A DNA stretch of 12,723 nt, from IMG/VR virus record IMGVR_UViG_2654587685_000022; one strand, 5' to 3'. This DNA comes from a virus (taxonomy: Duplodnaviria > Heunggongvirae > Uroviricota > Caudoviricetes). Of this stretch, positions 1-3,542 are shown piece after piece (the stretch's first letter is position 1; each line of letters opens with the position of its first letter). A program made the translations under genes and the position numbers. The notes beneath the pieces are model-generated. The model was not told the DNA's origin. It worked only from the letters and a program-made list of their open reading frames with translations, and ran no database searches.

Positions 1-20
1 CACTGTTTATCTATACAGTT
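1..20 (+). promoter_or_regulatory. Candidate LexA (SOS) box, distal copy
   Basis: caCTGTttatctatACAGtt has the CTGT-N8-ACAG dyad with an AT-rich spacer, matching the E. coli LexA-box pattern TACTGT(AT)4ACAGTA. It lies about 45 bp upstream of the dinI-like start codon and is truncated by the window edge, so flanking context is unknown. Confidence 0.55.
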
Positions 21-28
21 AAAAATAA

Positions 29-48
29 TACTGTATACAAACACAGTA
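29..48 (+). promoter_or_regulatory. LexA (SOS) box, proximal copy
   Basis: taCTGTatacaaacACAGta is a near-consensus 20-bp LexA operator (CTGT-N8-ACAG with flanking TA..TA). It ends 14 bp before the ATG at 62 and a GAGGG Shine-Dalgarno at 51-55. Confidence 0.75.
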
Positions 49-61
49 TAGAGGGACTTTT

Positions 62-310
62 ATGCGTATTGAAATCTGCATAGCCAAAGAAAAAATGACT
101 AAAATGCCAACCGGTGCTGTGGATGCGTTAAAGGAAGAATTAACCCGACGCATCAGTAAACGTTATGACGATGTAGAGGTGATCGTAAAAGCCACCAGCA
201 ACGATGGCCTTTCTGTTACACGCACCGCAGATAAGGATTCTGCAAAAACTTTTGTTCAGGAGACTCTGAAAGATACCTGGGAATCTGCTGACGAGTGGTT
301 TGTTCACTAA
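62..310 (+). CDS. dinI: DinI-like DNA damage-inducible protein (prophage-borne homolog)
   Basis: 82-aa [12 protein letters not shown]...[11 protein letters not shown]. Length, N-terminal MRIE motif and C-terminal ETWESADxWFV motif match my recollection of E. coli DinI (about 81 aa). SD GAGGG sits 6 nt upstream and two LexA boxes lie directly upstream. It is on the opposite strand to the tail module. Confidence 0.85.
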
Positions 311-544
311 TTAACACGTAAAATCGGTAACGGCTGGAAATCATTCAATACTCGCACTATCGAAAGTTCGCCAGCCAGCCGTGGCACGTTCTTGCATACG
401 ACGTGCTACGGTTTCATTTATCTCCCGAAACTCCATTTGGATTTATCCGGTGCGCCGTAAAACCCCGTCCTTCAGGGCGTGGAGGATGTCAACTGGACGC
501 ACTGGAGCTGGTCGATACTTCCGGTGCGCCAGATATTGAATGGC

Positions 545-1150
545 CTACGCCTCCGGCAGTTCAGGCCAGATGACATCCGGCGCGGTGCTGGTATCTGTTG
601 CCTGCACCGCCTTAATGTAGCCAATCCAGGCAATCAGGCTGGCTTTGTCATCGCCACTGATAATGCCTAACTGCAGTTCCGTTTGCCACAGGCTGATTTT
701 TGAATTTGCGGCGTTCAGAAGATTTGTTTTCTGTTGCTCGGCTTCGGCCACGTTCGCCGAGTGCTGTTTATCGCTATCTGTAGCCCATTTCTCACCATCC
801 CATTTGTCATATGGCGTAGATGGTGCTGTGGTGGTGGTGCCTTCCGGGTATTCTCCCAACCGTGAAACTGTCACATGCTTTCCAGTTTCCGTGCTGTAAA
901 CGGTTTCGCCGCGATGGTCTGCAACGTATTCCCAACCGGTCAAATCAGCCGTCCGGCAAACAGCAAAGCCGTCCTTTTTGCTGATTGGCGCATCCACGCA
1001 CGAATTGCCTGGAACACCAACGCCAACGGGAAGATATTCAACAGCTAAACCGATATATTCACGCGTCACGCCATCATAATTATAAACGGTGATATATCCG
1101 TCTTCCGTGACGAAACCGTTTTCATCTAATGAAATTTCTTTTGCGGTCAT
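545..1150 (-). CDS. Tail fiber assembly protein (Tfa chaperone family)
   Basis: 201-aa ORF immediately downstream of the tail fiber gene with a 1-nt TAATG stop/start overlap. This position and size are typical of Tfa/gpU-like chaperones. Family assignment is by position and general composition, not by search. Confidence 0.7.
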   Translation of the reverse strand: MTAKEISLDENGFVTEDGYITVYNYDGVTREYIGLAVEYLPVGVGVPGNSCVDAPISKKDGFAVCRTADLTGWEYVADHRGETVYSTETGKHVTVSRLGEYPEGTTTTAPSTPYDKWDGEKWATDSDKQHSANVAEAEQQKTNLLNAANSKISLWQTELQLGIISGDDKASLIAWIGYIKAVQATDTSTAPDVIWPELPEA

Positions 1151-1905
1151 TATACTGCCCTTACAATGTAGTTGAATGCGAGGTTGCGCGGGCGAGTTTC
1201 AGCACCTGTTGAACCATTCGCCTTTACGTAAACCCAACCAGAGCCATTAAAAGTGGTTGCATTAATCATATATTTAATCGGAATCATGTCAGAGTCAGGG
1301 GTATCGCCCAGCCTGTCCCTGTAAGCGGTCTCTGAACTGTATGCCATCGCTAGATCATGAGTATGCTGCTGTACTGATTGGCTCTGACCAGTTAAAACAA
1401 CGCGCCCACTATCAACCCCGCGCCCATCATCCCAGCCACGGATAAATTCACCGCGCAAATCAGGCAATTTTAACGCTGGATAAACTTTTGCCAGCTCCGG
1501 GTATTCTTCAGCAGAAAAAGGCGCACCGTTGCATTTAATCCAGCCTGTTGGCGGTGTGGCTGAAGGCCACGGAACAGGTACACCAACGGGTAACGCTGAG
1601 CCTTCTCCCAAACCAAGGTTTTCGAGAGCCGTTTTCACCGTGCCATCCGATTTGATATCACCAAACGGATTCTTGCGGCTTAACAGCAGCGCACGAAGCG
1701 CGGTAAGCAGCTGGTCGTGCCGCCCCTTCTCCAGGCTGGCACCGGATGCCTCCACAACGCTGCAAAGCTCCTCCTGCAACATGTCAAAGTAGTCATCATC
1801 CAGATCGGTGGCAGGTGTGCCGGTCTGGGGGTTACCACGGGTAAAACCGTTCTTACCCGCGCCGAACTTATCCTTCTGCGCGGTTTTCGTGTCTATACGA
1901 TGCAT
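1150..1905 (-). CDS. Short tail fiber protein (constant N-terminal part plus tail-collar-like C-terminal domain)
   Basis: 251-aa ORF with GGAG SD 7 nt upstream of the ATG. The C-terminal half (PVGVPVPWP...[23 protein letters not shown]...[17 protein letters not shown]) resembles the phage tail collar domain found in e14 StfP-type short fibers. The N-terminal roughly 97 aa end exactly at an internal hix-like site. Confidence 0.7.
1603..1628. other. Candidate Hin/Gin/Cin/Pin-family DNA invertase crossover site inside the tail fiber gene
   Basis: TTCTCCCAAACC-AA-GGTTTTCGAGAG is a 26-bp imperfect palindrome about an AA core. Each half matches 9/12 to hixL (TTCTTGAAAACC AA GGTTTTTGATAA) as I recall it. 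It encodes [10 protein letters not shown] at residues about 92-101 of the fiber, which is where Sc/Sv junction sites sit in Mu and e14 fibers. Confidence 0.5.
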
Positions 1906-1908
1906 GGA

Positions 1909-2493
1909 TTACTCCGGATATTTAAAAATTACGTAGGTATGCGAAGGGCAGAGTTTGTTAAGCACGCACTCGACAACGGTGTCGCCCCAGATACGCAGTG
2001 CGGAATCACAGGGATCGCCACATGTCATCCAGGTGGTGTTGGTGGCGGCTGGCATGTTGACCTGCCAGTAATACCGCCATTCCGGCGCATTCACTGCGTC
2101 AGTACAGGCCGATGAGCAGGTGAACGTGCTTTTATCGTATCGCGTGATAGTGGCGTCTGGTCTGCCCAGGGCAGCAAGCTGTGCAAGATAAAAATCCTCA
2201 TTGATGCCGCCCGCCAGATTAACCTTCGCATCCAGCCGTTGCTGACGCTGGCGAAGGGTCTGTGTCCCTGCGGGAATACATTCATCCGGCAGACCGCACA
2301 GACGCTCCCAGCGGTTTATCAGTTCAGTGGTGGTGCGCGGATCCAGCTCCCGCATCAGGGCATCCGCACGCTGATGAACGCGGGTTAATGACGGTGCCGC
2401 ACCGGCAATCGCCGGATCGCTGACTGACCACGCCGGACCGGGCGGCAACAGTGCCGACAACAGACGGATATAATCATCGTTTGTCACGTCCAT
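1909..2493 (-). CDS. Baseplate wedge/tail protein, Mu gp48-like (YmfQ-like, 194 aa)
   Basis: 194-aa ORF between the baseplate J-like gene and the tail fiber, overlapping the J-like gene by 10 nt. Position and size correspond to Mu gp48 and e14 YmfQ. Confidence 0.6.
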
Positions 2494-3542
2494 GAAATCG
2501 TCCCCAGAACCGCCAGCTCATTTTTTGCAATGGAGATATTGTCCGCCGGGGCAAGCAACTGATGGCTGTATTCCCCGTTCGCACCGGAAATCGCTTCACT
2601 GATACGTGACACCTTCAGTTCTCCCTGCGGATAACCATCACGCAGCAGGAACGAACGCAACTCGGCGGTGATGGCAGCCCGTATTTCCGGTGTGTCCGGC
2701 GTCACGCGGATATGAAAATCCACTTTATGCGCCACCGGCCTGAATACATACAAATCAGAGCCTGCCACCGGGGCCAGTGGCTCGATATGTTGTCTTGCCG
2801 CCGTTTCCGTTGACTCTTCCGGAATGGGATTAATCAGGTCACTGCTGGCAATCATCACACCGACAGTCCCCGTTCCCATCCAGTGTCGGTATGTCCATGC
2901 GCGGGTAATGCCGGGCACTTCTTTAGCCCAGACGACATAGTCCCCGTCAGCCCCGCCCTGAGGCGTCCAGTAATACCGCTCAATGACGCGGGCGCGCCAC
3001 GTTTCCAGCTCTTCAGTATCAAATCCGCCTGTCAGGGTGTCAGCCACACCGGAAGACGGCAGACCATTCACCGGCGTGACCAGGATTAATGCCGTACCGT
3101 CGTCAGCGTTACCGACCGCGCCTGTAGTTGAGCAAGTGATCGGCACACGCAGGACACCACCAGTGCTGATTGCATCGGCAGTTGCCGTGTACTGAACCAG
3201 GTCATCGCGCTGAATAACACTCCCGGCGGTCACCTTCAGGCCATCGCTGACACCTTCCCAGCGCATATACCCGCTGGCAGCCGTGGCCCCCTTGCGCGGA
3301 CACCGTTTCATCGCAGCATGTCGCGCCAGCCAGGACTCATCGCACAGATCAGGCAGCATGTTCATTGCCAGATAATCGATGTAACCGTAAACCGTATGCA
3401 GCGCCGCCGCATACACCTTTGCCCGCACGTCTTCATCCATGCGCCGGAGCGTGTCGCTGACGTCCAGCCTGGCGAATAAATCGTTACGGAGCATACTGAT
3501 ATTTTCTGCCAGCGTCGGGCGCTGAAATTCACTGTCCGCCAT
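2484..3542 (-). CDS. Baseplate J-like protein (Mu gp47 / P2 gpJ family)
   Basis: 352-aa ORF in the conserved position between the gp46-like and gp48-like genes with overlapping start/stop. Size and position are as expected for baseplate J. Confidence 0.7.

Follow-up and report, generated by a model that had tools for sequence, protein, structure and literature searches.

The question raised by this locus is whether a 26-bp sequence inside a tail-fibre gene is a working part of a DNA inversion switch, the relic of one, or simply coding sequence. The window, i.e. the whole 12,723-nt stretch that was analysed (IMG/VR record IMGVR_UViG_2654587685_000022), was described in an earlier note as carrying a Hin/Gin/Cin/Pin-type crossover site at 1603-1628 without an invertase. 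Our answer, to which we assign a probability of roughly 0.9, is that the sequence is pixL, the fossil of a Pin switch that was locked by deletion, and that the deletion scar is old and was carried in with the fibre cassette. The site, the invertase family, the switch and its locked derivatives are long established, and in this respect the window holds nothing new.

The window belongs to an E. coli prophage of the SfV/e14 kind, whose tail is contractile and of Mu type. Baseplate and tail genes resembling Mu gp43-48 are followed by a fibre gene and tfa. Identity with E. coli prophages located beside dusA is 99.3-99.8% over 92-93% of the length. Positions 1602-2500 are 96.6-96.7% identical to SfV, SfI, SfII and SfIV, and this homology ends at 1602, the edge of the 26-bp site. 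The tail module was found in 860 complete E. coli genomes and a dusA-type invertase block in 72. Only 5 complete E. coli genomes cover window 311-640 to at least 80%, and none covers window 1-2500 to that extent.

The genes next to the site are readily recognized. A Baseplate J/gp47-like gene (2484-3542, minus strand, Pfam Baseplate_J) and a Mu gp48/YmfQ-like baseplate gene (1909-2493, minus strand, Pfam Phage_Mu_Gp48) precede the 251-aa tail-fibre gene (1150..1905, minus strand), which was identified by its ORF and translation and by a Pfam Collar domain at residues 108-155 (E 9e-14). The constant N-terminal part of the fibre extends down to ~1617, and the variable C-terminal tip occupies 1150-1602. 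Paired with this expressed tip is the 201-aa tail-fibre assembly chaperone Tfa (545..1150, minus strand, Pfam Caudo_TAP, E 4e-35). A dinI-like gene (62..310, plus strand, Pfam DinI, E 1e-19) follows, which in relatives marks the prophage end beside the integrase. The block downstream of dinI (311..413) is conserved in the intact relatives, in lambdoid phages (mEp460 and others) and in HK97, and is likely a substrate for module exchange. Just 5' of dinI lie two CTGT-N8-ACAG motifs, CTGTTTATCTATACAG and CTGTATACAAACACAG, at window 3-18 and 31-46; as a pair they look like tandem LexA (SOS) boxes.

The 26-bp site itself (1603..1628, plus strand, TTCTCCCAAACCAAGGTTTTCGAGAG) comprises an inner, variable-side half-site at 1603-1614, an AA core at 1615-1616 and an outer, constant-side half-site at 1617-1628. 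The half-sites TTCTCCCAAACC and GGTTTTCGAGAG agree at 9/12 positions when one of them is reverse-complemented. This is the architecture of a Din-family crossover site, in which a 2-bp core, where the strands are exchanged, separates 12-bp half-sites that are imperfect inverted copies of each other. The location, at the constant/variable joint of a tail-fibre gene, is also that of this family. Read on the minus strand, the site spans fibre codons 93-101, which encode ALENLGLGE. Alignment to curated sites upheld the earlier assignment to the Hin/Gin/Cin/Pin type and made it specific. Curated pixL, listed as TTCTCCCAAACC AA GGTTTTCGAGAG in Table 3 of the Din-family sites (PMC3241671), is identical to the window site at 26/26 positions. 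Identity falls to 21/26 for pixR, to 20/26 each for hixL, cixL and cixR, and among the more distant sites to 18/26 for gix and bix and 16/26 for hixR. The 26-nt Din consensus TTCNNNNAAACNNANGTTTNNNNGAA shows one mismatch to the window site. When the window was scanned with TTCTCCCAAACCAAGGTTTTCGAGAG at up to 3 mismatches, the only match was the exact copy at 1603-1628 (0 mismatches), and 0/200 shuffles gave a match. As a control for the scan, the Mu gix sites were recovered exactly at their annotated G-segment boundaries. The exact 26-mer was also found in stfP (ycfK) of K-12 e14, in yfdL of K-12 CPS-53, in SfV and in >100 viral contigs. On the strength of this alignment the 26-mer is identified as pixL, the crossover site of the E. 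coli Pin tail-fibre inversion switch.

Conservation around the site was examined in 80 loci picked solely by fibre residues 1-90, a sample that is unbiased regarding the site. Identity to the window is ~1.0 across the constant part and the core, down to 1616, and 0.82-1.0 over 1604-1615, across the inner half-site. Left of 1603 it is mostly 0.1-0.3, with a few positions up to 0.7. The collapse of identity just outside the inner half-site puts the constant/variable junction of the fibre where the earlier note had placed it. Even the third-codon positions of the inner half-site (1606, 1609 and 1612) show 0.88-0.93 identity among cassettes that otherwise have nothing in common. This is conservation at the DNA level, at a place where every cassette must bring the half-site. 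That unrelated cassettes all start with the inner half-site matches the requirement of a Din switch.

The earlier note had proposed a comparison with related prophages that retain an invertible segment, and such prophages exist. A complete switch is present at the same dusA/dinI locus in three relatives, L001, L008 and L220, the last of which (strain CX21) is the closest intact relative of the window. The intact order is int, dinI, invertase (minus strand), an inverted second site, the alternative tip (plus), the alternative tfa (plus), tfa (minus) and fibre (minus). Inversion by Din-family enzymes involves dimers at two 26-bp sites plus a Fis-bound enhancer on supercoiled DNA; the wild-type invertase is chemically inactive without that enhancer and performs intramolecular inversion only, and the Hin enhancer is ~100 bp from hixL (PMC3798978). 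In the intact relatives one Pin dimer sits on pixL in the fibre gene and a second on pixR beside pin. As those relatives and the cited papers show, strand exchange at the central AA inverts a segment of ~1.8 kb. The constant N-terminus (...ALENLGLGE) is thereby fused to either of two tips, and each tip comes with a Tfa chaperone of its own.

A side observation concerns the dusA prophages L001 (1954-2517 and 2577-2602) and L008. Their invertase represents a second lineage, which shares only 56% identity with PinE and 51-53% with Cin and the Gin of D108; the window's own stub is of the pinE type. This dusA-type lineage is accompanied by the same exact pixL but by a differing outer half-site, TTCTCCCAAACCAACCTTTCAAATAT. 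Since the pinE type and the dusA type are both paired with an exact pixL, two invertase types serve one site family. The variable part of the window fibre (1150-1602) is a mosaic, in which 1381-1602 is common with the expressed cassette of L001 (97%) and 1186-1380 matched neither that cassette nor HK97 stf/tfa.

The second site, the invertase and the alternative cassette of a functional Din switch are missing from the window, in agreement with the earlier note. Scans of the 12.7 kb for a second site with the whole 26-mer, with the 26-nt Din consensus and, at up to 3 mismatches, with the inner half and core (14 nt) found only the site itself, and the DNA in which L220 has its pixR is deleted here. 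Tblastn searches of the window with PinE, the dusA-type invertase and Gin returned no neighbouring serine invertase, and a hidden one was rejected on these three queries; what remains of pinE is its stop and last 3 codons. The alternative fibre tip is absent from the window as well, and its cognate tfa in the opposite orientation is reduced to an 81-nt 3' remnant.

How these parts were lost can be read from the stretch at 414-573. Window 1-425 corresponds to L220 301-725 at 99.77% identity. As pinE of L220 occupies 714..1268 on the minus strand, window 414..425 (minus strand, TCATTTATCTCC) is the stop plus last three codons (G D K, stop) of a pinE-type invertase. The end point in pinE is identical when the window is compared with the intact loci L129, L022 and L047. 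Homology resumes at window 493, which corresponds to L220 2039, within the alternative tfa, and to L001 from 3346. Here 493..573 (plus strand), which overlaps the 3' end of tfa, holds the end of a convergent alternative tfa: 26 codons, read as LDALELVDTSGAPDIEWPTPPAVQAR, and the stop. The remnant aligns to Caudo_TAP positions 111-131 of 131 (E 5e-4), its score of 20.7 bits falling short of the 22.1-bit cut-off, and PGAP labels the same remnant in D53-1, PM7 and WP8 'tail fiber assembly protein, missing N-terminus'. L220 726-2038, a total of 1313 bp, is lacking in the window and is replaced by 67 bp of other DNA. The lost DNA comprises pinE codons 1-181, pixR, the alternative tip and ~113/139 codons (~80%) of the alternative tfa.

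In hin, gin and cin the enhancer is located inside the 5' coding part of the gene, and by analogy the Fis enhancer would have been lost with the pinE 5' region in the 1313-bp deletion. Judged by alignment, the pinE stub and the convergent tfa remnant are direct remnants of the deleted switch. Of the two explanations offered in the earlier note, a switch locked by deletion is thus the one that the stub, the remnant and the 1313 bp missing relative to L220 bear out. The note had also described a 235-bp noncoding stretch before dinI. The gap between tfa and dinI is 234 bp and has no long ORF, but it is not featureless, for it holds the 12-nt pinE stub and the 81-nt tfa stub. The loss of 1313 bp and the insertion of the filler would have fixed the fibre as constant part, Collar-domain tip and one Tfa, and pixL would now serve as coding sequence (a hinge) only. 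With one site, no partner, no invertase and the enhancer DNA presumed gone, the window should be unable to invert.

The 67-bp filler at the deletion junction (426..492) has a core at ~442-483 that is a short dispersed E. coli repeat. No counterpart of the filler was found in the intact relatives, and its blastn matches came only from scar-bearing loci. Partial matches occur in 4966/5426 complete E. coli genomes, at 3 places in the median genome, and most of the matches listed are intergenic. In L139 the filler adjoins an IS200/IS605 tnpA pseudogene; in strain 23CRST022 the repeat is 26 bp from an IS200/IS605 tnpA pseudogene, and an IncI2 mcr-1 plasmid has a related copy. An origin of the filler from tfa or invertase sequence was rejected, as its frames showed no protein-level likeness by eye, and a strongly structured element was rejected on the basis of its z score (-0.56). 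The only noteworthy Rfam hit was CssrB, a Shigella chromosomal sRNA, at 380-443 (minus strand) with 32.2 bits against a gathering threshold of 76 (E 5.5e-5). It extends over the pinE stub and part of the block downstream of dinI, and probably has no significance.

The scar is shared with other phages. Window 317-619 is contiguous in HK97 at 96.7% identity, between tfa and sib/attP, and in PM7, a lambdoid prophage at bio/ybhB, at 97.7%. It is also present in D53-1 (96%), WP8, S51 and IMG/VR contigs. The IMG/VR contigs L058 and L122 are 100% identical to the window over 300-700 and 98.2-98.8% identical overall. The presence of the same scar in HK97 and several other prophages indicates that it is old and mobile as a module. 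D53-1 has window 1-619 and 1601 onward, with a different cassette over 620-1600, from which it follows that the pieces recombine. Since so compound a scar is very unlikely to form twice, it most likely has a single origin and moves together with the locked cassette. Homologous recombination probably brought that cassette in here, and independent deletion is less likely. The exchange could have used the dinI-downstream block (311-425) on one side and, on the other, either the 3' end of tfa or the fibre's constant part or pixL.

Sequences resembling pixL were noted in HK97 (L009, 3815-3840) and PM7 (L006, 5299-5324), with 3 and 4 mismatches, respectively. Both are in side-tail-fibre genes of lambdoid type whose N-terminus is different, and both lie where the common tip region begins. 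HK97 retains every position of the inner half-site and core, and PM7 departs from them at one.

Known systems were compared with the window. The P segment of K-12 e14 has an identical pixL, equally placed within a homologous fibre gene that follows a homologous ymfQ/gp48-like gene, and its pixR, TTCTCCCAAACCAACGTTTATGAAAA, is 1.8 kb from pixL, beside pinE. The order fibre, tfa, convergent tfa, alternative tip, invertase is common to e14 and the intact relatives. Whereas e14 keeps pixR, pinE and both cassettes (stfP/tfaP/tfaE/stfE) and inverts (PMC4272514, PMC12529663), the window has only pixL, one cassette and two small stubs. Inversion of the e14 P segment has been seen in culture (PMC4272514). 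CPS-53 (KpLE1) resembles the window in that it has an exact orphan pixL in yfdL, one tfa (yfdK), no invertase and a convergent tfa pseudogene, tfaS, a comparable locked arrangement in the reference genome. It differs in that its fibre gene yfdL is a pseudogene and its neighbours are gtr-type O-antigen genes and intS, not dinI.

HK97 shares with the window the contiguous scar (dinI-downstream block, pinE stub, filler, tfa remnant and tfa 3' end), an stf gene with a pixL-like site at 3 mismatches, and a related tfa and tip; stf/tfa is 82.6% identical to the window tip and tfa over 317-1185. Unlike the window's prophage, HK97 belongs to the lambdoid siphoviruses, its fibre has another N-terminus, and its scar lies beside sib/attP. 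The tail module and fibre constant part are common with SfV, SfI, SfII and SfIV, and SfV has an exact pixL, but their tip and tfa differ from the window's. SfV has no invertase and no dinI there, and its one tfa is followed by gtr genes and int. Mu G (Gin/gix), P1 C (Cin/cix) and Salmonella Hin/hix have the same 12+2+12 architecture and belong to the same serine invertase family, and in Mu and P1 the site lies at the constant/variable joint of the fibre gene. Their sites are only 16-20/26 identical to that of the window, however, and the switches themselves are whole and working. Their Gin (D108) and Cin, like PinE, show 51-56% identity to the dusA-type invertase of L001.

Other explanations of the lone site were weighed against an inherited, locked cassette. 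The deletion might have occurred within this dusA prophage itself rather than in a cassette that was already scarred on arrival. Window 1-425 is nearly identical to an intact relative at dusA as far as the break in pinE, which is what such an event would leave. We nevertheless consider it unlikely, because the same break point, 67-bp filler and tfa remnant occur in HK97, PM7, WP8, D53-1 and S51, because an identical complex scar would hardly arise twice, and because D53-1, with the scar and another cassette, shows that the pieces recombine. A more radical alternative is that the 26-mer was never a recombination site in this lineage and is kept only for its ENLGLGE hinge. SfV, SfI, SfII, SfIV and HK97 do have the 26-mer or a 3-mismatch version of it with no invertase, and about half of the sampled relatives are without an invertase. 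The earlier note had named such fibres as the observation that would count against a recombination site; the same fibre family, however, repeatedly carries full switches. The hinge explanation is also contradicted by the window's pinE stub and convergent tfa remnant, by a left flank 99.8% identical to that of a relative with a complete switch, and by the third-codon conservation at 1606, 1609 and 1612 across unrelated cassettes. It is exceedingly improbable.

The second proposal of the earlier note, that the site is usable in trans, would have a Pin-family invertase of another prophage pair the orphan pixL with a pix site elsewhere. If true, large chromosomal inversions or capture of fibre cassettes could result. 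PinE, PinQ and PinR, which come from three different prophages, each invert the e14 P segment, so trans action is real (PMC12529663). The window site is a perfect pixL, and pinE-like DNA was found in 2724/5426 complete E. coli genomes, near full length in 1179. One genome, CP178306.1, has e14 with pinE together with a second, orphan exact pixL. Given documented trans action and frequent pinE-like genes, use in trans is possible in principle. Yet wild-type Din invertases need a Fis-bound enhancer and carry out intramolecular inversion only (PMC3798978), and the window lacks both a partner site and the DNA that should hold the enhancer. In K-12 the identical orphan pixL of CPS-53, inverted relative to e14 pixL, coexists with pinE, pinQ and pinR, but a whole-genome inversion screen of an MG1655 derivative identified the e14 locus only (PMC4272514). 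We therefore did not retain this proposal and regard use in trans as very unlikely.

A related and similarly remote idea is that the orphan pixL acts as a docking point, at which Pin from co-resident prophages or infecting phages swaps tip cassettes between elements. This would explain why the inner half-site stands at the start of unrelated cassettes in the 80 relatives, and why the same scar is found with different cassettes in the window and D53-1. Under the preferred reading, a switch locked by an old deletion that came in with its cassette, the prophage is best annotated with a single, fixed tail-fibre specificity, and a solitary pixL should not be taken as evidence of phase-variable host range. 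The combination of stub, filler and remnant is a marker for tracing locked fibre cassettes between lambdoid and SfV-like prophages. Beyond annotation the importance is small, the same orphan site being present in K-12 CPS-53 and the same scar in HK97.

Locked forms were counted in two IMG/VR samples, which are not phylogenetically independent, so the counts are descriptive only. The exact-26-mer sample consisted of 54 loci with the site and enough flank. A second site accompanied a full invertase in 23/54 and a truncated invertase in 18/54; in 1/54 no second site was found beside a full invertase, and 12/54 had neither of the two. The constant-part sample was the 80 loci described above, of which 64 were classifiable. 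One site without an invertase was found in 31/64 and one site with a partial invertase in 12/64, while two sites occurred with a full invertase in 8/64 and with a partial invertase in 9/64; the other 4 showed other combinations. The locked state is therefore common, in about half of the sampled relatives.

The truncated-invertase loci with both sites (18/54 in the exact-26-mer sample and 9/64 in the constant-part sample) deserve separate mention. In L026, L032, L074, L079, L083, L090, L112 and L115 the invertase is cut to its first 34-49 residues while both sites and cassettes are kept. Truncation of the invertase with both sites kept is thus another way for a switch to become locked, or dependent on action in trans. 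One further exact pixL lies at 155-180 of a 5.8-kb contig (L018, JAEWTL010000032.1) labelled as a Bacillota metagenome-assembled genome, which is probably a mis-binned fragment of an enterobacterial prophage.
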